From the NCBI GenBank assembly GCA_043767805.1, contig JAYUGC010000103.1, forward strand, positions 1-29,485: DNA of 29,485 nt, in the 5' to 3' direction. The stretch is from Pseudomonadota bacterium. Its GTDB lineage: Bacteria > Bdellovibrionota > FAC87 > UBA2466. The number at the start of each line of letters is the position of its first letter. Positions within the stretch are counted from its first letter, which is position 1. A program made the position numbers and the translations under genes. Positions 4,258-14,903 of this stretch are shown piece by piece. The notes beneath the pieces were generated by a model that was not told the origin of the DNA, did not search any database, and worked only from the letters and a program-made list of their open reading frames with translations.

Positions 4258-5589
4258 TTAGTCGCCTTCGACCACGCCGTAGTACGTGAGGCCCAAGTGG
4301 TTGATGAGCTCTTCGCCGCCTAAGAACCGGAGCGTGTTGTGGAGCTTCAACTGCTGGACCATTAGGTCGTGCTCGGGCTTGAGGCCCGGGCCGGCCAAGG
4401 GTCCTTTGAAGTAGAAGGACAACCACTCCTGGATGCCGTGGAAATCGCTGCGAGCCGCGAGATCCAGGAACAGCGCCAAGTCGAGTACGAGAGGCGCGGC
4501 GAGGATGCTGTCACGGCAAAGGAAGTTCACCTTGATCTGCATTGGGTAGCCGAGCCAGCCGAAGATGTCGATGTTGTCCCAGCCCTCTTTATTGTCGCCA
4601 CGGGGCGGGTAGTAGTTGATCTGAACCTGGTGGTGGACCTTGCCGTAGAGCTCCGGGTAGGTCTGGGGCTCGAGGATTTGGTCGAGTACGCCGAGCTTGG
4701 TGACTTCCTTACTCTTGAAAGAGCCTGGATCCGCGAGCACTTCCCCGTCCCGGTTACCGAGAATATTGGTGGAGTACCAGCCGTTGAGGCCCAAGAGACG
4801 GGCCTTGATGCCGGGCGCGAGCAGCGTCTTCATCAAAGTTTGGCCGGTCTTGAAGTCGGAACCGCAAATCGGAACACGCATCTCGCGGGCGAGGTGCTGC
4901 AGGGCGGGGACTTCCACGCTGCGGTTCGGAGAACCGTTCGCGTAGGGCACGCGCTCTTTGATCGCGGCGTACGTGTAAATCTGAGAAGGCGAAATGTTCG
5001 GATCGCTGTCCTCGAGGCCTTTTTCGAAAGCCGCGATGCTTTCGTGGCACTCGGAAGGCGTCGTGTAGCGCTCGGTGCTCGCACACCAGACCATCACGAG
5101 ACGGTCGCAGTTCTTGTCTTTATTGAAATTGCGGATGTCCTGGCGGAGCTGTTCCGCGAGGTCACGCTTGTTCTTGCCGATCTTAACGTGGCTACCGTTG
5201 ATCTGCGTGATGTAGTTGGGATCGAAAACCGCCGACATGGGCTTGATGGTCTCGAGGGTGCCTTTGAGCTCCTGCACGAGATCTTTTTCGAGAACTTGGC
5301 TCTTCATGGCCGCGTCGTACGCGTTGTCTTCGAAAATGTCCCAGCCGCCGAAAACCAAGTCTTCGAGCTCCGCGAGAGGAACGAAATCTTTAATGGCAAC
5401 ATCGCGGTTTTCGATGCGCTTGCCGAGCCGCATGCGGCCCATCTGCGTGACGGAACCGATCGGTTTCGCGATGCCGCGGCGGACGGCTTCCACGCCGGCG
5501 ATTAAGGTCGTCGAGACGGCGCCCATTCCAGGCAACAAAATTCCCAGGCGGCCTTTGGCCGGGGCAATATTGGTTTTCGTCGGGCTCAT
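4258..5589 (-). CDS. ino1: myo-inositol-1-phosphate (inositol-3-phosphate) synthase
   Basis: GMGAVSTT Rossmann motif, VMVWCASTE, ANGSPN, GSDFKTGQT, NILGNRDG, YYPPRGDNKE, CRDSILAAP. Start at ATG 5589 after an AAAGGAG Shine-Dalgarno. Confidence 0.95.
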   Translation of the reverse strand: MSPTKTNIAPAKGRLGILLPGMGAVSTTLIAGVEAVRRGIAKPIGSVTQMGRMRLGKRIENRDVAIKDFVPLAELEDLVFGGWDIFEDNAYDAAMKSQVLEKDLVQELKGTLETIKPMSAVFDPNYITQINGSHVKIGKNKRDLAEQLRQDIRNFNKDKNCDRLVMVWCASTERYTTPSECHESIAAFEKGLEDSDPNISPSQIYTYAAIKERVPYANGSPNRSVEVPALQHLAREMRVPICGSDFKTGQTLMKTLLAPGIKARLLGLNGWYSTNILGNRDGEVLADPGSFKSKEVTKLGVLDQILEPQTYPELYGKVHHQVQINYYPPRGDNKEGWDNIDIFGWLGYPMQIKVNFLCRDSILAAPLVLDLALFLDLAARSDFHGIQEWLSFYFKGPLAGPGLKPEHDLMVQQLKLHNTLRFLGGEELINHLGLTYYGVVEGD

Positions 5590-5740: not shown

Positions 5741-6694
5741 ATGACGACATCAGACGAAAGGAAACGCCGCCGCAGTCGACGGCCGAAGGTCACTCCGGCC
5801 CCCGTGCGCGAGGTCCCCACGGAGCCCACCGCCGCCCCCCGTCAGGGCTTCTTCCAGGCCGAGGATGGAACCCCCATTTACTTCGAAGTTCAGGGAAAAG
5901 GGCGTCCGCTGCTGCTTTGTTACGGACTGCTTTGCCGTAAGGATCATTGGCGGCATCAGATCGGCGAGTTCTCCAAGAACTATCAGGTCATCACCTTCGA
6001 TTATCGGGGGCATCAACGGTCGGGACGCCCGTCCAACGATCGCAATCTGTCCCTTCACTGGGTGGCGAAAGACATTCAAGGGCTCTTCGATCACTTGGGA
6101 TTGGAGGAAGTGGTGGGCTTCGGCCACAGTCTCGGCGTGCCGGTCCTGGCTCAGGCTCTCAGCCAGGAAAAGCGGTTCAAGGGAGCCGTGCTCATTTGTG
6201 GCGCGGTCACCAATCCCTTCAGGCACATGTTTTATACCGATCGCCTGAACGGGCTTTACCGTTTCACGGCCGCGGCCCACGAGCACGCACCGAAACTCGC
6301 GAGCTATTTCTGGAATAAGCTCACCAAGGTCAACTCGTTCAGCTATCAGCTCACTCGCCATCTCGGTTTCAATCCGGACACGGCCACCGAGCGAGACGTC
6401 ATCTCCTACATGGAAGGCGTTTCGGAAACGCCGTTCTCGGTCTTTCAAGCGTTCCTGCGCGATTACACGAATTACGACGGGCGAGGGGTATTGCCGAAAA
6501 TCAAGGTGCCCGTGCTCATCATCGCGGGGGAAGACGATCTCATCACGCCCGTTTATCTCATGGAAGAAATGGCGCGGCTTCTTCCCGCGGGCGAAATCGT
6601 GAAAGTGACACAAGCGAGTCACAATGCTCATATGGATTTTCCGAAAGAGGTAAACGATACTATCGACCACTTTCTGAAGAGGATCGGATACTGA
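5741..6694 (+). CDS. Alpha/beta-fold hydrolase
   Basis: DYRGHQRS, nucleophile GHSLG, GEDD acid and SH catalytic His. Confidence 0.9.
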   Translation: MTTSDERKRRRSRRPKVTPAPVREVPTEPTAAPRQGFFQAEDGTPIYFEVQGKGRPLLLCYGLLCRKDHWRHQIGEFSKNYQVITFDYRGHQRSGRPSNDRNLSLHWVAKDIQGLFDHLGLEEVVGFGHSLGVPVLAQALSQEKRFKGAVLICGAVTNPFRHMFYTDRLNGLYRFTAAAHEHAPKLASYFWNKLTKVNSFSYQLTRHLGFNPDTATERDVISYMEGVSETPFSVFQAFLRDYTNYDGRGVLPKIKVPVLIIAGEDDLITPVYLMEEMARLLPAGEIVKVTQASHNAHMDFPKEVNDTIDHFLKRIGY

Positions 6695-7512
6695 TGCGCC
6701 TAGTGTTACTGACCGCTCTCATCTGTCTCGCCGGCTGTACGCAAAGTCCCGTCGCTTCTTCTCCCAAAGCGCTGCTGCCGGGAACGGCGGAACTGACGAC
6801 CGATAGATTTTGGGAAGACCAGAAAGAGCGCACTGAAGAAGCCTCGCAGATTTCCGCCAAAGTGCGGGTGAGCTACCAGGGCAGGGGAGGAAAGAAAATC
6901 TCCGGCAATGGGCGGCTCGTTCTGCAGCCCGATTCCAAATTGCGTCTCGAGTTGCGCGATCCCCTGGGCCGGATCCATTATCTGGCGGCGCTCACCGACG
7001 GCCACTTCGCGGCTCACTACCCTCGCCAGAAACTGGCTTATGTCGACGATAGAGGCGGCGGCGCGTATGTTCTCGATTTCCTCGGAATCGATTTCAATTT
7101 CTCGGATCTCCACAGTCTTTTGCTCGGAATTCTACCGGGGCGTTTCGCGAAAGCCTCTTTCGAGGCGTGGCATTTCGATAAGCCGTCCAATACCTACCGC
7201 GGCCTGCTCACGGTGTCGGACTACCGGGTCTTGGCGACGGTGGACGCGAGCTCCGCTGCACTCAAAGCCTTGGAGCTCAGCTCGAAAGCTGGAAAAATCA
7301 CTTTGGATTATTCGTCGTTCGAGCCCTGCTGCCACGGCATGACGGCCTCTCGCTCGGTGCGCGTGGCTCAGGTGGTCGACTTGAAGCTCGATCGCGCGCG
7401 CACGTCGCTCTCCATCGAGTGGGAAAAAATCACGCCCCTCGAACAGGCCCGTCCAGAAGAGGTTTTTCGCCTGGAGATCCCGGAACAAGATCAGAAAATC
7501 GTTTTGAAGTAG
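6694..7512 (+). CDS. Lipoprotein, LolB/DUF4292-like
   Basis: LAGC lipobox; LRLELRDPLG motif typical of LolB-like folds; 1-bp overlap with the upstream gene. Confidence 0.65.
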   Translation: MRLVLLTALICLAGCTQSPVASSPKALLPGTAELTTDRFWEDQKERTEEASQISAKVRVSYQGRGGKKISGNGRLVLQPDSKLRLELRDPLGRIHYLAALTDGHFAAHYPRQKLAYVDDRGGGAYVLDFLGIDFNFSDLHSLLLGILPGRFAKASFEAWHFDKPSNTYRGLLTVSDYRVLATVDASSAALKALELSSKAGKITLDYSSFEPCCHGMTASRSVRVAQVVDLKLDRARTSLSIEWEKITPLEQARPEEVFRLEIPEQDQKIVLK

Positions 7513-7521
7513 AATACTGCG

Positions 7522-7983
7522 ATGGCCCTACCCAAGACGCGCGAACCGGTGCTTCCTTCCTTGGAGACGTTCCTATTCTCCGAGAAACTGCTCTCTCCGC
7601 AAAAGTCGGTGGAGTTATTGCGCTACATGTCGAGCGAGGAGCTGACGGCGGGATCGGCCGTCATGCGGCTTCGGTTGGTGACGCCCCAAATCTTAAGCGA
7701 AAAGCTCATGAAGCACTTCGGCATTCCGACGGTGAAAATCGAGTCCATAGGCGGGACCAAGATGCGGAAAGTTCTCACCGAGGACAAGGTCCGCGCCTGG
7801 CAATCCGTGCCCGTGGACTTCGTGGACGACAACGGCGTCCGCAAACTCATCTTGGGCATGACCGATCCGCTTCATCGGGCCATCCAGCAATCGGCCGAGA
7901 CGTTGACGCGACTGACGATCCAGCCCGCGTTTCTTACGTGGGAAGACTTCGAGACGATCTGCGCGACTTGGTTTGGAAAGTAA
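7522..7983 (+). CDS. Stand-alone GspE/PilB N-terminal (T2SSE_N, MshEN-like) domain protein
   Basis: Two helical repeats followed by HFGIPTV...VPV...LILGMTDP. No ATPase domain. Confidence 0.7.
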   Translation: MALPKTREPVLPSLETFLFSEKLLSPQKSVELLRYMSSEELTAGSAVMRLRLVTPQILSEKLMKHFGIPTVKIESIGGTKMRKVLTEDKVRAWQSVPVDFVDDNGVRKLILGMTDPLHRAIQQSAETLTRLTIQPAFLTWEDFETICATWFGK

Positions 7984-8009
7984 TCTTAATCCGCCACAGG
8001 CGTAGGCGG

Positions 8010-9281: not shown

Positions 9282-9324
9282 GTAGGTAACACTTTTGAGC
9301 CCAACCTTTGAGCAAAGGGTAGCC

Positions 9325-10050
9325 ATGGACAAGATTCTCGTTATCGAAGACGACAAAGATTATCAGTTCCTCATCCAGACCGCGCTGACGGGAGAGTACG
9401 AGGTGCTCTGCGCCGATACGGGTAAATCGGGCGTGCAACTCGCCAAGGAACACAAACCAACGCTCATCTTGCTCGACATCTCCTTAGGAGAGATGGACGG
9501 CTTCGAAGTGTGCCACATGCTGAAAGGGCAGAAGGAAACGGCGGTGACCCCGGTCATCTTCCTCTCCTCTCGTAACGACGCCCACAGCAAGGTGATGGGA
9601 TTTGACCTAGGCGCGGATGATTATCTGCAAAAGCCCTTCGAGCCGGATGAGCTCAAAGCGCGCATCAAGGTGCGTATCCGCCAGAGCGCCGCGCGGCGCG
9701 AAAATCTTTCGACCTTCGAGATGCAGGGACTCAAAATCGATTTCCTCGGTCACCGCGTTCACGTGGAAGACAAGGAAGTCCCGTTCTCCGCGCTCGAGTT
9801 CAAGCTGCTCTCTTACTTCGTTCGCAATCCCGACCGCGTTTTGTCGCGCGAGCGGATTTTGAATAACGTCTGGGGCGTCGACACCTTCGTCACCGACCGC
9901 GTGGTCGACTCTCATATCCGCAGCATCCGTAAAAAGCTCGGCGCTTACAAAGATCATATCGAGTCCATCTACGGCGAAGGCTATCGGTTCAATCCGGTGC
10001 CTCTCAACGCGCAGCAGCCGCTCGAGAAAAAAGACGAAGAAGCCGCGTAA
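9325..10050 (+). CDS. OmpR/PhoB-family DNA-binding response regulator
   Basis: KILVIEDD, LILLD, GADDYLQKPF receiver; winged helix with VVDSHIRSIRKKL and YGEGYRF. Start at ATG 9325. Confidence 0.95.
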   Translation: MDKILVIEDDKDYQFLIQTALTGEYEVLCADTGKSGVQLAKEHKPTLILLDISLGEMDGFEVCHMLKGQKETAVTPVIFLSSRNDAHSKVMGFDLGADDYLQKPFEPDELKARIKVRIRQSAARRENLSTFEMQGLKIDFLGHRVHVEDKEVPFSALEFKLLSYFVRNPDRVLSRERILNNVWGVDTFVTDRVVDSHIRSIRKKLGAYKDHIESIYGEGYRFNPVPLNAQQPLEKKDEEAA

Positions 10051-10085: not shown

Positions 10086-10751
10086 ATGCGCAAACGCCCG
10101 ACAGCTCTCTTTATCTGCGCTCTGCTTTTCTCTTACTTTCCCATCGAGTTCGCCTCCAAGATGATTCAGGGGGGCAAGTACCACGGTTTCGAGGCGATGC
10201 TGAGCCTCGGCCTTCCGGTGCTCTTGATGTTTGGGCTCATCCGCGTGAACCGGGTCGGCTGGTACACGCTGGTCACTTTCGTCGCGCTCTGGGGCGTCGA
10301 AGATCTCTATCAGTATTACCAGCGCCACACTTCGAACCTGACTCCGCTTCTTGCCCACTTGGCGATTTACGTCATCTCGCTCACTTACTTCATCAATCCG
10401 CGGGTGAGAACGCTCTATTTCGATCCTAAAATGCGCTGGTGGCGGGCGAAACCTCGTTTCGAGACGCACATGCCGAGTCTCATGCAGGAGAAGGAAAATT
10501 GGAATTATCCCGTGCTCCGAAACATTTCGGAGGGCGGCTGCTTCATCGAGACGGCGCATCTTCTCGACGTCAATTCCCTGGTGAACGTCGCCATTCCCTT
10601 GCCCGTTCCGCTGAATCTCTCCGTCATCAAGGCGGAAGGCTCCGTGCGCTGGGTCTCGACTAATCCGCTCCGCCACGGCATGGGCATTCAGTTCAACACT
10701 CCGGCTCCGCACTCCAAAGCGCTTCGCGGCTTCGTCGTCAAACAGCTCTAG
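10086..10751 (+). CDS. Membrane protein with C-terminal PilZ (c-di-GMP-binding) domain
   Basis: About four hydrophobic segments, then RAKPR (RxxxR), NISEGG ((D/N)xSxxG) and GMGIQF. Confidence 0.88.
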   Translation: MRKRPTALFICALLFSYFPIEFASKMIQGGKYHGFEAMLSLGLPVLLMFGLIRVNRVGWYTLVTFVALWGVEDLYQYYQRHTSNLTPLLAHLAIYVISLTYFINPRVRTLYFDPKMRWWRAKPRFETHMPSLMQEKENWNYPVLRNISEGGCFIETAHLLDVNSLVNVAIPLPVPLNLSVIKAEGSVRWVSTNPLRHGMGIQFNTPAPHSKALRGFVVKQL

Positions 10752-10808
10752 TCCCGTCTAAAAGTGTCCACACACTTTTTAGACCCGCGTGATTTTTGGC
10801 CGGGTTGC

Positions 10809-10837
10809 TTGAAAAGCGGGCGAAACGCCGACATAAT
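10809..10837 (+). promoter_or_regulatory. Putative sigma-70 promoter of the kamDE-moxR-vwa operon
   Basis: TTGAAA-N17-CATAAT, 10 nt upstream of ATG 10848. Confidence 0.55.
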
Positions 10838-10847
10838 CTGGCGCACT

Positions 10848-12434
10848 ATGTCGTTTTCTCCCGTCCTCCCTTTGCCACTGAAGCAAATCGCCCGCTGTCG
10901 GCAAATTGCTTCCTCCATTGGCGATCAGGTGGTGAGCCTAGTCCAGGCCAATTCCACCGTCGGGATCGAGCGGACGGCCTTGCGCCTTCTTGGATTTAAC
11001 GGGGCGCTCGCGCACGAAGGGCTCCTTTTTCCCGTTTCGAACTTCATCGTGGACCAGTTAAAGCGCGCCGACCGCCTCCATGAAGGCGCTCTTTACGGCG
11101 TAGCCAATGCGCTCGTCGCGACCGGAGAAACCTCCGCCTCGCTCGAGACCAGGATTCTCGAAGGCAAGTTCGACGTCGGCAGCGTCGTCCTTCAAGACCG
11201 CAAGAGGGTCGCCAAACTGGTCGACAGCCTTTGCACGAAGTCTTTTCAGAATTTGAAAAAGTACCGGGCCGCCCGCCAGAAGTTGAAAGCCAAGCAGGGC
11301 GATCCCAAAAAAAACGGCCGCCCGCTCAAGTACGTCATCGTCGCGACCGGAAATATTTTCGAGGACGTGACTCAGGCGAGAAGCGCGGCCATGGACGGAG
11401 CGGACATCATCGCCGTCATTCGTAGCACCGCCCAGTCGCTCCTCGATTACGTGCCTCAGGGTACGACGACCGAAGGCTTCGGTGGCACTTACGCGACGCA
11501 AGCGAACTTTCGCGTGATGCGCGAAGCACTCGATGAGCTGGGCACCCAGATGGGGAAGTACATACGGCTCACCAATTACTGCTCGGGCCTCTGCATGTCG
11601 GAAATCGCGGCGCTCGCCTCGATGGAAGGCCTAGACTGCCTGCTTAACGACGCTATGTACGGTATTCTCTTCCGCGACATCAACATGAAGCGGACTTTAG
11701 TCGACCAGCATTTTTCGCGCGTGATTTGCGGCTTCTCCGACATCTGGATCATGACCGGCGAAGACAACTACATGAAGACCACCGACGCCGTGGAGAGCGG
11801 CGACCAGGTGCTCGCCTCCGAGTTCATCAACGAGCGTTGCGCGCTCAACGCCGGCATGAAGCACGATCAGATGTCCATCGGCCACGCCATGGAGATGAAT
11901 CCCGATTACGAGAACGTGATCCTCATGGAAATCGCCCGCGCGCAGATGACGCGCCAGATTTTTCCGAAGAGTCCCTTGAAGTACATGTGTAATACCAAGT
12001 TCAAGACGGGCGACATCTTCACGGGCCACGCCATCGACACCATTTTTAATCTCATCGGCTCGCTCACGGATCAGGGCACGCTCCTCCTCGGTATGCCCAC
12101 GGAAGCCATCCACACGCCCTGGCTTCAAGACAGGACGCTTAGCATCCGCGGCGCGAACTACGTTTTGAACGGCACCCGCGCCGTTTCGGGCGAGCTCGGC
12201 TACCGCAGCGACGGCTTCATCGCCAAGTTCGCCAAAAAGGTTCTGGTAGATTGCGTGCGCCTGCTCGAGAAGATCGATGACCAGGGTTTCCTCGACGCCA
12301 TCGAAAAACGCACGTTCGCGGGCGTCAGCCGCACGGAAAAAGGCGGGAAGGGCTATGACGGCGTCTTCACCATCGAGAAGGGCCGTTACCAAAATCCTTT
12401 CTACAAACTGATGGGGAGCCGGATTACGGTATAA
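10848..12434 (+). CDS. kamD: Lysine 5,6-aminomutase alpha subunit
   Basis: YVIVATGNIFEDV, IAVIRSTAQSLLDYVP, GFGGTYATQANFR, NYCSGLCM, LNDAMYGILFRDINM, TGEDNY, TEAIHTP. Start at ATG 10848. Confidence 0.93.
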   Translation: MSFSPVLPLPLKQIARCRQIASSIGDQVVSLVQANSTVGIERTALRLLGFNGALAHEGLLFPVSNFIVDQLKRADRLHEGALYGVANALVATGETSASLETRILEGKFDVGSVVLQDRKRVAKLVDSLCTKSFQNLKKYRAARQKLKAKQGDPKKNGRPLKYVIVATGNIFEDVTQARSAAMDGADIIAVIRSTAQSLLDYVPQGTTTEGFGGTYATQANFRVMREALDELGTQMGKYIRLTNYCSGLCMSEIAALASMEGLDCLLNDAMYGILFRDINMKRTLVDQHFSRVICGFSDIWIMTGEDNYMKTTDAVESGDQVLASEFINERCALNAGMKHDQMSIGHAMEMNPDYENVILMEIARAQMTRQIFPKSPLKYMCNTKFKTGDIFTGHAIDTIFNLIGSLTDQGTLLLGMPTEAIHTPWLQDRTLSIRGANYVLNGTRAVSGELGYRSDGFIAKFAKKVLVDCVRLLEKIDDQGFLDAIEKRTFAGVSRTEKGGKGYDGVFTIEKGRYQNPFYKLMGSRITV

Positions 12435-12436
12435 CC

Positions 12437-13192
12437 ATGGCGGAAATCGATCTCAAAAATCTGCTCCCCTACGGCGATACCACTCAAGACGGCGCCGTCC
12501 AGCTGAGCTTCACGCTTCCCGTGGAGCCCGGCCAGAAAGCAAAAGAAGCCGCCGCCCAGCTTGTAAAACTTTGGGGCTTTACCGACATCAAAGTCGCGCA
12601 CATGTCCAAAGCCGGCGTGAACTACACCTTCTTTGTTTGCTTCGGCCGTGTCGATAAAGGCATCGACTACGCCACGTTGCACGTACCGGAAGTCGCCATC
12701 ACCACGCTCTCCTATAAGGAGATCGACAAGCTCATCAAAGAAAAGGTAGGCCGCAAGATCGTGGTCGTCGGCGCTTGCACCGGTTACGACGCGCACACCG
12801 TGGGCCTCGACGCCATTCTCAACATGAAGGGCTTTGACGGAGATATCGGTCTCGAGCGTTACCAGGGCTTTCGCTGTGTTAATATGGGAAGTCAGGTGCC
12901 CTCCGATGAGCTCATCGATCGGGCGGTGAAGGAAAAAGCGGACGCGATCTTGCTCTCGAAGATCGTGACCCAGAAAGACATTCACATCCACGACATGCAA
13001 GAGCTGATGAACAAGTTGAAGAAGCGGGGCCTGCAAGATCGGTTCATTTTGGTCGTCGGTGGCCCACGCGTGACTCATAAGCTCGCTCTCGAATTGGGCT
13101 ACGACGCAGGCTTTAGCATCGGCACCAAGCCCAGCGACGTCGCCAACTATCTGCTCGATAAGATGATCGAGCGTAAGGACAAGGGCAAATAG
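12437..13192 (+). CDS. kamE: Lysine 5,6-aminomutase beta subunit (AdoCbl/PLP-binding)
   Basis: PYGDT..DG.VQLSFTLP dimerisation domain, DAHTVG (DxHxxG) and the PLP lysine in AILNMKG. Confidence 0.93.
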   Translation: MAEIDLKNLLPYGDTTQDGAVQLSFTLPVEPGQKAKEAAAQLVKLWGFTDIKVAHMSKAGVNYTFFVCFGRVDKGIDYATLHVPEVAITTLSYKEIDKLIKEKVGRKIVVVGACTGYDAHTVGLDAILNMKGFDGDIGLERYQGFRCVNMGSQVPSDELIDRAVKEKADAILLSKIVTQKDIHIHDMQELMNKLKKRGLQDRFILVVGGPRVTHKLALELGYDAGFSIGTKPSDVANYLLDKMIERKDKGK

Positions 13193-14028
13193 TGGGCGCC
13201 AAGGAAAAATCTTCCGTGGTGGGACGGGGCACTGAGCGGGAGCAAATCTCGAGCGCCATCGGTTTGCAGAGAAATATCCTTATCGAAGGCCCAGTCGGGG
13301 TCGGCAAAACCTTTCTCGTCCAGGAAATCTTGAAAAGCCGCAAGCACGACTACGAGCGCATCGACGGCGATTCCCGTTACACCGAGCAAAAGCTCACGGG
13401 TTGGTTCGATCCGCCGCTGGTTTTGAAGAAGGGCTATACCAAGGACACGTTTCTCGACGGGCCGCTGGTCACCGCCATGCGGGAAGGCAAAATTCTTTTC
13501 ATCAACGAGCTAAACCGCATGCCGGAAGCCGTGCAAAACATTTTGCTCCCCGCCATGGACGAGCGGCGCATCTCGGTTCCCAAAATCGGCGTCATCCTCG
13601 CTAAAAAGGGTTTCGCGGTCATCGCGACCCAAAATCCCCGTGAGTTCACGGCGACCCATTCTCTGTCCGAAGCGCTTCTCGATCGTTTCGAGATGGTCCG
13701 GCTCGATTACCAATCCGAGGACGAAGAGCGTCGGATTTTAGACGAGCAGGCGGGAGACGCCGACAAATCCACTTTGGCTCGCGCGCTTTATCTGGTGCGG
13801 GCGACCCGGAACCATCCAGCCATCAAACGCGGGGCGAGCATTCGCGCGGCGCTCGCCGTTTGTCACTTAGCCGGCTCCGGCATCGATTTCCGTTCCGCCG
13901 TTTTCATGGCGCTTCCGGGCCGCATCGAAATGGTGGCCTCCGATCAGGACGCCCGCCAAATACTGGCGGAAATCCTCGATAAGGGGATGCCTTCGGGCTC
14001 CGCGGAAAAAAAAAATCAAAAAACCTGA
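13192..14028 (+). CDS. MoxR-family AAA+ ATPase
   Basis: Walker A GPVGVGKT, Walker B LFINELNR, IATQNP, LSEALLDRF. The GTG start overlaps the kamE stop. Confidence 0.92.
   Translation: MGAKEKSSVVGRGTEREQISSAIGLQRNILIEGPVGVGKTFLVQEILKSRKHDYERIDGDSRYTEQKLTGWFDPPLVLKKGYTKDTFLDGPLVTAMREGKILFINELNRMPEAVQNILLPAMDERRISVPKIGVILAKKGFAVIATQNPREFTATHSLSEALLDRFEMVRLDYQSEDEERRILDEQAGDADKSTLARALYLVRATRNHPAIKRGASIRAALAVCHLAGSGIDFRSAVFMALPGRIEMVASDQDARQILAEILDKGMPSGSAEKKNQKT
14006..14015 (+). other. A10 slippery run: candidate -1 frameshift or transcriptional slippage site joining MoxR and VWA
   Basis: GAA AAA AAA AAT in the MoxR frame. The -1 frame is stop-free from 13983 to 14900 and in frame with the VWA ORF. 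Confidence 0.6.
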
Positions 14029-14066
14029 CCGATAGGCTCTTCCCCTCGAATGTCGCGGCCGTTTTC

Positions 14067-14903
14067 ATGCCGCCCGAGCTCTCTCAAAACCTTGACGAGG
14101 AGGCGGAGGAATCCGCCTTGGGCGGCAAAACCGATCTCATGCGCCAGATATATTTCCGCAGCCTTCAAGGGGCGGAGCGCAGCGAGGAAGAGGATCGGCG
14201 GCTCGTGCGCCTCATTCTCGAGCATGCGAAGCAAATCATCGCGCACCCCGCGAAACCTCTGGAGCGCCATTTCGAGGAATGGGCGCGGTCGCCTTTCGGA
14301 GAGCTCGCGCTCGAGGAATCCCTCGAAGAAGATCCCATGCTGGCGGATGAGAAGAGCCTTCTGGTGGAAGAGCGCCGCGAGAAACGGTTTTCCTGCGCGG
14401 CGATGCTAGACACCAGCTCCTCCATGTCGGGCGATAAGCATTTGCTCGCGAGCATCGCGGTAGCGGTGCTTCTGCTCGAAGTCCCTTCCGCCCATAACTC
14501 GCTCTCGGTCTTTTCCTCGAAATCGAAAACCGTGAAAGATCTCGAGAAGCGGGAATCGGTGGAAGCCACCGTGCTGCGGTTTCTCAAGACCCGGCCCAAA
14601 GGCTTCACCAATATCCACGCGGGGCTCGAAGCGGGGCTCGCTCAGTACCGGCGCGCGGGGATTACCCGGCGCAAAGTGGGATTACTCGCGAGTGATGGCC
14701 GCTCGACCGAGGGGCCGGACGCGACGGACATCGCCCGCCAATACGATTTTCTCGTGGTGCTCCATCTGCACGGGCCCGGAAGTCTCCTCCAGGCGAGCGA
14801 AGCCATCGCGGCGGCCGGCAATGGCGTCTGCCTGGAAGTGAAGGCTTTCGAGGAGTTACCTCGGCGCTTGTACGATGCCCTTCGCCTGATCGCCCGCCGT
14901 TAG
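14067..14903 (+). CDS. VWA-domain protein (possibly the C-terminal part of a frameshifted AAA-VWA fusion)
   Basis: MIDAS DTSSSM, GFTNIHAGL, ASDG; acidic N-terminal linker; no Shine-Dalgarno before ATG 14067. Confidence 0.88.
   Translation: MPPELSQNLDEEAEESALGGKTDLMRQIYFRSLQGAERSEEEDRRLVRLILEHAKQIIAHPAKPLERHFEEWARSPFGELALEESLEEDPMLADEKSLLVEERREKRFSCAAMLDTSSSMSGDKHLLASIAVAVLLLEVPSAHNSLSVFSSKSKTVKDLEKRESVEATVLRFLKTRPKGFTNIHAGLEAGLAQYRRAGITRRKVGLLASDGRSTEGPDATDIARQYDFLVVLHLHGPGSLLQASEAIAAAGNGVCLEVKAFEELPRRLYDALRLIARR

Follow-up and report, generated by a model that had tools for sequence, protein, structure and literature searches.

We analyzed a window of 29,485 nucleotides (nt) of bacterial DNA (contig JAYUGC010000103.1 of assembly GCA_043767805.1, phylum Bdellovibrionota), in which an open reading frame (ORF) for a MoxR-type AAA+ ATPase is followed by an ORF for a protein with a von Willebrand factor type A (VWA) domain. 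These two ORFs very probably represent a single recoded gene, whose second part is reached through a -1 frame change on a run of 10 adenines (A10) close to the end of the first. The sequence-only reading of the window had proposed that such poly-A recoding generates an AAA+-VWA fusion alongside an AAA+-only protein. Our analysis supports this proposal and, with respect to the slipping machine, makes RNA polymerase somewhat more likely than the ribosome. What is annotated as two genes would then be one gene that needs a slip on 9 to 11 A's, and this across a phylum. Unless another locus or genome is named, coordinates count from the first letter of the window; the AAA+-VWA locus and its upstream neighbors lie on the plus strand.

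Anatomy of the AAA+-VWA locus

The MoxR-type ORF (13192..14028) has a GTG start, which shares one base (13192) with the stop codon of the upstream gene kamE, and ends with the codons GAA AAA AAA AAT CAA AAA ACC TGA. The A10 run (14006..14015) begins on the second base of a codon and holds two in-phase heptamers, A_AAA_AAA (14007-14013) and A_AAA_AAT (14010-14016). Unslipped reading would stop at the TGA at 14026..14028, the end of which lies 13 nt past the run, and yield an ATPase of 278 amino acids (aa). In the -1 frame, the last stop ahead of the run is a TAA at 13980..13982. From position 13983 onward, this frame is open for 307 codons, via KKKSKNLTDRLFPSNVAAVF, into the ATG at 14067 from which the VWA ORF was called (14067..14903), and on to the stop at 14901-14903. 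A slip by one base on the A10 run would therefore lead to a product of 570 aa, composed of the AAA+ part, a linker rich in lysine and proline (SKNLTDRLFPSNVAAVF, decoded in the -1 frame from 14016..14066 and devoid of a start codon of its own), and the VWA domain with its metal ion-dependent adhesion site (MIDAS). No purine-rich stretch resembling a Shine-Dalgarno sequence was found in the 24 bases upstream of the ATG at 14067. Thus, the positions from which the sequence-only reading had started, the heptamer in the correct phase, the absence of a Shine-Dalgarno sequence ahead of the VWA ATG, and the lengths of the two products all hold.

The A-run at the ORF boundary is conserved throughout the phylum

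Taken alone, the A10 run is unremarkable. The host genome (4.52 Mb, 57.9% GC) contains 18 A/T runs of at least 9 nt, where 5.8 are expected from its composition, and 2 of at least 10 nt, where 1.2 are expected. It is the position and the conservation of the run that exceed chance. Only 1 of the 18 runs, the one in the MoxR gene, combines the end of a long ORF with the opening of another frame: the zero frame is open for 276 codons before and 6 after this run, and the -1 frame for 7 codons before and 298 after. The longest run in the genome, an A11 near a contig end (G000:C129:152), has all three frames open for just 15 to 50 codons around it. The window harbors a second run, an A9 at 182-190, located just upstream of the likely start of an ORF with a B12-binding domain (1-741; Pfam B12-binding, 1.2e-14) and displaying no pattern of one ORF ending while another opens.

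Related loci were collected in several ways. The VWA protein was searched in the genomes of 41 relatives and was present in 23 of them, and an alignment-based scan of public genomes gave 26 loci, 20 of which were identical to ones from the first search, resulting in a combined first set of 29 distinct loci. A search of public genomes with the single VWA protein returned one weak match only, labeled Nitrospinota. In all 29 loci of the first set, the named records of which are labeled Bdellovibrionota, Pseudobdellovibrionaceae, or similar, the VWA frame was -1 relative to the AAA frame. The AAA ORF ended on A9 in 6, on A10 in 21, and on A11 in 2 of them, and no stop interrupted the -1 frame between the run and a conserved V-F-F-P-P-E-L N terminus. 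A scan for relatives of KamD led to a second, distant clade (labeled Bacteriovoracaceae or Oligoflexia) with a VWA identity of 27 to 31%, and in its five loci the AAA ORF again ended on A9 or A10. Searched with a fused relative, 122 of 401 genomes of the phylum proved to carry the AAA-VWA pair. Among the 30 loci returned from this search, 2 were cut by contig ends, and the other 28 had A9 (18 loci) or A10 (10 loci) with VWA in the -1 frame. The pooled set comprises 62 distinct loci, free of duplicates, from several families of one phylum.

Without exception, these 62 loci have VWA in the -1 frame and an A-run at the end of the AAA ORF, A9 in 27, A10 in 33, and A11 in 2 of them, so that the A-run with a nearby stop proposed by the sequence-only reading is indeed kept by the orthologs. 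The run starts at codon position 1, 2, or 3 in 4, 34, and 24 loci, respectively, and is followed by G in 51 of the 62. The zero-frame stop ends 3 to 82 nt past the run, 7 nt in 29 loci. In nine loci, a stop in the -1 frame lies at most 2 nt before the run or overlaps it, which means that in these cases the frame change must occur on the run itself. The -1 overlap is free of stops in every locus, and the -1 frame is open for 280 to 353 codons in 59 of them, the three exceptions being L066 (232 codons), L079 (contig end), and L078 (second frame break 83 codons on). The second break in L078, a Bacteriovoracaceae-labeled locus, is situated about 150 nt past the run, in the VWA N-terminal region after a conserved V-F-L-P-P-E, and is explained either by an indel in the assembly or by decay of this copy. 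It has to be considered that the loci are kin, and their counts therefore overstate the independent support for recoding. As far as can be judged from sequence comparison, the A-run at the MoxR/VWA boundary is nevertheless a conserved recoding site and not an error.

RNA polymerase or the ribosome as the slipping machine

According to the review PMC5009743, bacterial RNA polymerase slips efficiently at 9 A/T, and its RNA-DNA hybrid measures 9 to 10 bp. We adopted the threshold of 9 from this review, and an A/T run of about this length or more, which is all that transcriptional slippage needs, was found in each of the 62 loci. The transcript would realign on the 9 to 11 A's, a stretch as long as the RNA-DNA hybrid, and gain one A, and the mRNA with the extra A, translated in the ordinary way, would give the fusion. 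Ribosomal -1 slippage may contribute.

We lean slightly toward slippage by RNA polymerase, because neither a conserved structure nor a Shine-Dalgarno-like element accompanies the run, because no run falls below 9, and because the host has two tRNA-Lys species. Folding of 29 loci revealed no excess of structure in the 75 nt downstream of the run (mean z, +0.07) or in the 60 nt upstream of it (mean z, -0.06). Shine-Dalgarno-like 4-mers upstream of the run were not enriched, occurring in 12 of the 62 loci compared to 18 of 62 in a control window. The minimum run length in the 62 loci is 9, although 7 would suffice for the ribosome. The host genome encodes both tRNA-Lys UUU and tRNA-Lys CUU, and the presence of two tRNA-Lys species was suggested as the reason why Thermus dnaX uses polymerase slippage (PMC5009743). 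Furthermore, the run occurs in all three codon phases, and the wider family displays other frame relations, with A11 in frame in L180 and A11 followed by the +1 frame in L182.

The same two products would be formed if the ribosome slipped, that is, by programmed -1 frameshifting on A_AAA_AAA or A_AAA_AAG as in Escherichia coli dnaX, and this is a serious, albeit less probable, explanation. Several observations speak for it and against the polymerase. An in-phase A_AAA_AAA is present in every one of the 62 loci, and A_AAA_AAG, the classical bacterial ribosomal slip site, is in register in 41 of them. The zero-frame stop follows the run closely, and 47 of the 62 runs end in the same register, which may be due to a constraint set by the ribosome or simply to shared ancestry. 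In reporters carrying chelatase gene cassettes in E. coli, 7 A's already caused 10% shifting (PMC3711429), rendering ribosomal slippage without a stimulator plausible, and the A_AAA_AAR motif of these chelatase genes is treated as a ribosomal shift site in the review (PMC5009743). However, an in-phase heptamer is inherent to any run of at least 9, and the phase is therefore uninformative. A run of 7 or 8 was found in none of the 62 loci, and neither was the form NNA AAA AAG, which would be sufficient for the ribosome. The lack of conserved downstream structure in the 29 folded loci and of an upstream Shine-Dalgarno-like element in the 62 also speaks against ribosomal frameshifting, as does the tRNA-Lys(CUU) in the genome, which, following the argument of PMC5009743, should hold AAG in frame. 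Both kinds of slippage may be acting. With a run length of 9 to 11 in any codon phase, this family offers a good natural case for polymerase versus ribosomal slippage.

The linker is constrained in the -1 frame, and in most loci no start codon precedes the VWA part

The linker was compared in 15 pairs of closer loci, one of which was dropped due to unequal length; some loci occur in several of the remaining 14 pairs, so that the following counts are not independent. Between the Lys codons and the conserved N terminus, 71, 56, and 124 differences fell on positions 1, 2, and 3, respectively, of the -1-frame codons. The ratio of synonymous to nonsynonymous changed codons was 70:95 in the -1 frame, compared to 23:142 and 12:148 for the remaining frames. 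As an example, the linkers of L033 and L036 differ in 11 of 54 bases but encode the same 18 residues, and in L036 a TGA abuts the run. This substitution pattern indicates that the linker past the run has changed in the way expected of coding DNA read in the -1 frame.

Most of the orthologs have no start codon for an independent VWA protein. In 17 of the 29 close loci, no ATG, GTG, or TTG occurs anywhere in the open -1 stretch before the conserved VWA N terminus, and in 35 of the 52 loci with a recognizable F-x-P-P-E motif none occurs between the run and this motif. The linker varies from 16 to 40 codons across loci with the -1 frame relation retained throughout, and in the distant clade it includes an additional conserved peptide motif, F-K/R-S-I-F. 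The P-P-E motif at VWA residues 2 to 4 is at least 90% conserved.

These data bear on the explanation that the locus consists of two ordinary genes, with VWA translation beginning at the ATG at 14067, or ribosomes reinitiating once past the MoxR stop, and the A-run being just part of a Lys-rich tail. The window does have this ATG, three further loci have an ATG at the aligned position, and gene callers report stand-alone VWA proteins of 159 to 299 aa. Yet, in 25 of the 29 close loci the ATG aligns with F, L, or V, and to the absence of start codons before the motif and of a Shine-Dalgarno-like stretch ahead of 14067 are added the coding constraint upstream of the ATG position, the strong conservation of P-P-E, and a -1 relation maintained in 62 of 62 loci despite the varying linker length. 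Two separately started genes are thus very improbable. In a protein database search at similar length, we obtained 124 VWA-only clusters, the predicted starts of which are scattered over the same range of lengths, and several VWA relatives bear the JGI name 'Mg-chelatase subunit ChlD'. If the recoding reading is correct, the database entries for VWA genes of this family all carry a wrong start.

Fused relatives

Against the 124 VWA-only clusters, a search for longer proteins identified just one that is fused; it has 574 aa and comes from a single contig. Its junction, SEKKKELKPKSRLEG, is exactly that of the -1-slip product predicted for the most similar loci. A profile search of 1.84 billion representatives produced 3,652 matches, 444 of these at an E value of 1e-10 or below, and 17 of the best 150 of the 3,652 are 560 to 711 aa long. 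Of 18 long matches scanned, 16 combine an N-terminal AAA_5 with a C-terminal VWA domain, so that the fused architecture is a natural one.

Different states of the junction, located near 4810-4900 in each case, were seen in three loci from outside Bdellovibrionota, found among relatives of one fused protein. L180 is an in-frame gene still carrying A11. L181, labeled archaeal, is an in-frame fusion with the three Lys codons AAG AAG AAG and no run. In L182, likewise labeled archaeal, a TGA comes after the A11, and VWA lies in the +1 frame. Three further relatives outside the phylum, L184 to L186, all show A9 and the -1 arrangement. Besides a split pair, one genome of the phylum (G298:C93:3814-4623, minus strand) has a second AAA match inside an open frame of 660 codons, possibly an in-frame fused paralog.

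Run length and its constancy

The sequence-only reading had left room for A11, i.e., one continuous gene, instead of A10. Our evidence on run length comes from Logan contigs of four DNA runs of one study rather than from raw reads, and a search of sequencing runs for the locus found no RNA run. At this level, contigs from three runs bridge the A-run without gaps and support A10; one of the three is possibly the run from which the window comes, and two of them may be a single data set.

The run could in principle act as a contingency locus, its length in the DNA switching the fusion on and off in subpopulations. Poly-A tracts also slip in replication (PMC3711429), and an in-frame state is known from 1 of 125 database clusters and from the distant relative L180. 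Such a switch should show both states, whereas the 62 loci are all equally out of frame, be the run 9, 10, or 11 long, and the contigs of the other runs of the study contain no length variant, although contigs can hide rare ones. We therefore hold phase variation to be very improbable. Even less credit can be given to an artefact or decay, in which the assembly of one fused gene would have got the homopolymer wrong or VWA would be a pseudogene, since, error-prone as homopolymers are and metagenomic as these assemblies are, the same -1 break recurs in 62 independent assemblies, A10 is reproduced by the Logan contigs, and the VWA part keeps its MIDAS residues at 50 to 58% identity across genera.

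Families of the AAA+ and VWA parts

The AAA part matched Pfam AAA_5 (2.3e-24; 86.4 bits, cutoff 22) and AAA_3 (1.1e-18; 67.9 bits, cutoff 27). In a sequence search against solved structures, the AAA domains of midasin were the best hits (E, 3.4e-38), and alignments to CbbQ and NorQ spanned the whole part (E, 3e-13 to 7e-10). The segments GPVGVGKT, ATQNP, DRFE, and RGASxRA are at least 90% conserved in 62 homologs; we take them to include the Walker A, sensor, and Arg motifs. The segment LFINE (13498-13518, MoxR residues ~103 to 109) is conserved to the same degree and presumably occupies the Walker B position, with Asn where AAA+ proteins usually have Asp.

The VWA part matched Pfam VWA at 2.5e-5 (25 bits, cutoff 23.8), and its residues D115, S117, S119, T181, and D210 (DxSxS...T...D) are invariant in 21 sequences. 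Searching solved structures with the VWA sequence gave nothing at E values up to 1. The AlphaFold model of this part (pLDDT, 88) was matched by Foldseek with a probability of 1.00 to MIDAS/VWA domains, comprising the MDN1/Rea1 MIDAS, the CMG2 VWA, and the VWA of NorD from the NorQ complex. On the basis of these matches, the pair is assigned to the MoxR class of AAA+ ATPases with an adjoining VWA partner.

The alternative that the pair forms a chelatase motor was also considered. PF01078 (Mg_chelatase) scored 19.2 bits against a cutoff of 20.3, and the BchD-ChlD model TIGR02031 and TIGR02442 scored 25 and 26 bits against cutoffs of 499.55 and 779, respectively. No match to CobN/ChlH (PF02514) was found in the host genome, which is 100% complete by markers, while a control search matched 5 of 14 genomes. 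With the chelatase models below cutoff and CobN/ChlH missing, the chelatase reading was rejected.

Association with lysine 5,6-aminomutase

The pair is preceded in the window by genes for an OmpR-type response regulator (9295..10050; Pfam Response_reg and Trans_reg_C), an upstream neighbor in most related loci, and a PilZ-domain protein (10086..10751; Pfam PilZ, 5.9e-11), whose upstream position is likewise conserved. These are followed by kamD (10764..12434; NCBIfam NF052384, 694 bits, cutoff 600; PF09043, 1.9e-206) and kamE (12437..13192; NCBIfam NF052385, 348.7 bits, cutoff 280), encoding the alpha subunit and the B12-binding beta subunit of lysine 5,6-aminomutase. The order response regulator, PilZ, kamD, kamE, MoxR, VWA is recurrent, and kamD-kamE lies directly upstream of the pair in 20 of 22 loci and, in a second set, in 25 of 30. 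The link between a MoxR protein and an aminomutase, which the sequence-only reading had mentioned, is thus real and conserved. In L039, MoxR directly follows PilZ with no kamDE between them, and in L035 kamE and MoxR are about 1.8 kb apart.

In loci labeled Caloramator and Alistipes, the genes before kamD encode KamB (NF052386) and KamC (NF052383), both above cutoff. Among 80 KamD loci examined, KamB/KamC were present in 0 of 13 with a downstream MoxR and both were present in 41 of 67 without it, so that in these loci the MoxR-VWA pair and KamB/KamC are mutually exclusive. The complete host genome has no KamB match, and its KamC-like matches are MutS-like and reach 186.7 bits, against a cutoff of 300.

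From this exclusion, together with what MoxR-VWA pairs do elsewhere, we infer that the MoxR/VWA pair might be a reactivase of KamDE that replaces KamB/KamC. A single locus would supply a short and a long subunit at a ratio set by the slip frequency. These could assemble into a mixed MoxR ring with few VWA arms, comparable to NorQ6-NorD and CbbQ6-CbbO, and the ring would serve as an ATP-driven reactivating chaperone for the adjoining adenosylcobalamin (AdoCbl)-dependent KamDE. Some of our findings weigh against such a role. In 2 of the 22 and 5 of the 30 loci (2 of the 5 cut at a contig end), kamE does not adjoin the pair. In loci labeled Myxococcota or Sorangium (L083 to L087, L091, L099, L104, and others), KamDE has no KamB/KamC and no MoxR-VWA within 5 kb. 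Outside the phylum, relatives of the pair stand without kamDE, and no common gene was found among the neighbors of the non-Bdellovibrionota relatives L180 to L186. In L186, a Verrucomicrobiota-labeled locus without kamDE, a gene for a lysine-2,3-aminomutase-like radical SAM protein (6668-8008) is found downstream of the recoded pair, some 900 nt away, which may be a coincidence.

It is tempting to go one step further and to picture the mixed ring, with one or a few VWA arms, as a previously undescribed AdoCbl-enzyme reactivase that has taken the place of the MutS-like KamB/KamC system phylum-wide, with RNA polymerase reading an A-run whose length sets the stoichiometry of the ring. The recoded module without kamDE in other phyla and archaea would then represent a general, portable enzyme-repair motor, with orphan frameshifted chlD-like genes, whose function is unknown, as its relatives. 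Taken as a whole, this picture is speculative and rather unlikely to hold in all its parts. Nonetheless, lysine 5,6-aminomutase provides an assayable client, given that KamB/KamC are absent where the recoded pair is present.

Comparison with known systems

The closest parallel is found in chlD genes with a frameshift (fs-chlD), and the comparison with chlD-type chelatases drawn by the sequence-only reading was apt in the light of PMC3711429 and PMC9227772. In six genera, 23 'magnesium chelatase' genes were annotated as two genes of ~1,000 nt each and are joined by a -1 shift on poly-A; reporter efficiencies were 63, 40, and 10% for 11, 9, and 7 A's, and fused homologs exist elsewhere (PMC3711429). 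As in fs-chlD, an AAA+ ORF is followed by one in the -1 frame, the two being annotated as separate genes and meeting at a conserved A-rich run, the short product would be AAA+ only and the long one AAA+-linker-VWA, and in-frame fused homologs occur. The -1 overlap, the A_AAA_AAR site, and a coding linker with no downstream start of its own, features of the same kind of gene, are all present here; this likeness is drawn from published descriptions of fs-chlD. Some genomes with fs-chlD are devoid of the large chelatase subunit, and none was found here either. The function of fs-chlD in such genomes is called unknown in PMC9227772, and the locus described here is a way to test the function of chlD-like frameshifted pairs without a large subunit. 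In contrast to fs-chlD, the ATPase is AAA_5/AAA_3 (MoxR) and not ChlI/BchI, the locus is linked to kamDE, and no conserved downstream structure was seen, whereas structures have been reported for chlD.

In dnaX, which gives rise to tau and gamma, the E. coli ribosome shifts by -1 at A_AAA_AAG, while Thermus thermophilus relies on transcriptional slippage at a run of 9 (PMC5009743, PMC3711429). The recoded locus resembles dnaX in that a slip on an A-run in one gene would yield two products in a fixed ratio, both of them components of a single ATPase assembly; a variant of dnaX in which the long form needs the slip exists, and the run is 9 to 10 long as in the slippage type. The protein family differs. 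Of the characteristics of the E. coli type, an in-phase X_XXY_YYZ is present here, but the stimulators (upstream Shine-Dalgarno, downstream hairpin) were not found, nor does the host depend on a single tRNA-Lys that decodes AAG weakly.

With NorQ/NorD and CbbQ/CbbO, the pair shares the full-length alignment of the AAA part, the match of the VWA model to the NorD VWA, and a position next to a presumed client enzyme. In those systems, however, the VWA partner is separate and independently started, while here it would be reached only via the ATPase frame, and the client proposed here is a new one, a B12 aminomutase. Midasin/Rea1 (MDN1), the top match of both parts, carries AAA_5 and MIDAS on one chain, as the slipped product would, but is a eukaryotic protein of 4,700 to 4,900 residues with six AAA modules per chain and is not recoded. 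KamB/KamC are likewise an ATPase-containing pair encoded beside kamDE; there is, however, no homology, KamC being MutS-like and the family models failing to match the MoxR-VWA pair.

Literature searches combining MoxR with frameshift and von Willebrand, aminomutase with MoxR, and transcriptional slippage with VWA and AAA+ or with Bdellovibrio returned nothing relevant, with most subscription journals and the published lists of frameshifted genes lying outside their scope; the family could already be contained in such lists. The kind of recoding is already known. New are the MoxR/AAA_5 ATPase, the phylum-wide spread, the lack of stimulatory structure, and the link with a B12 aminomutase, and the locus would carry the principle of one gene for two subunits over from ChlI/ChlD to ATPases of the MoxR type.

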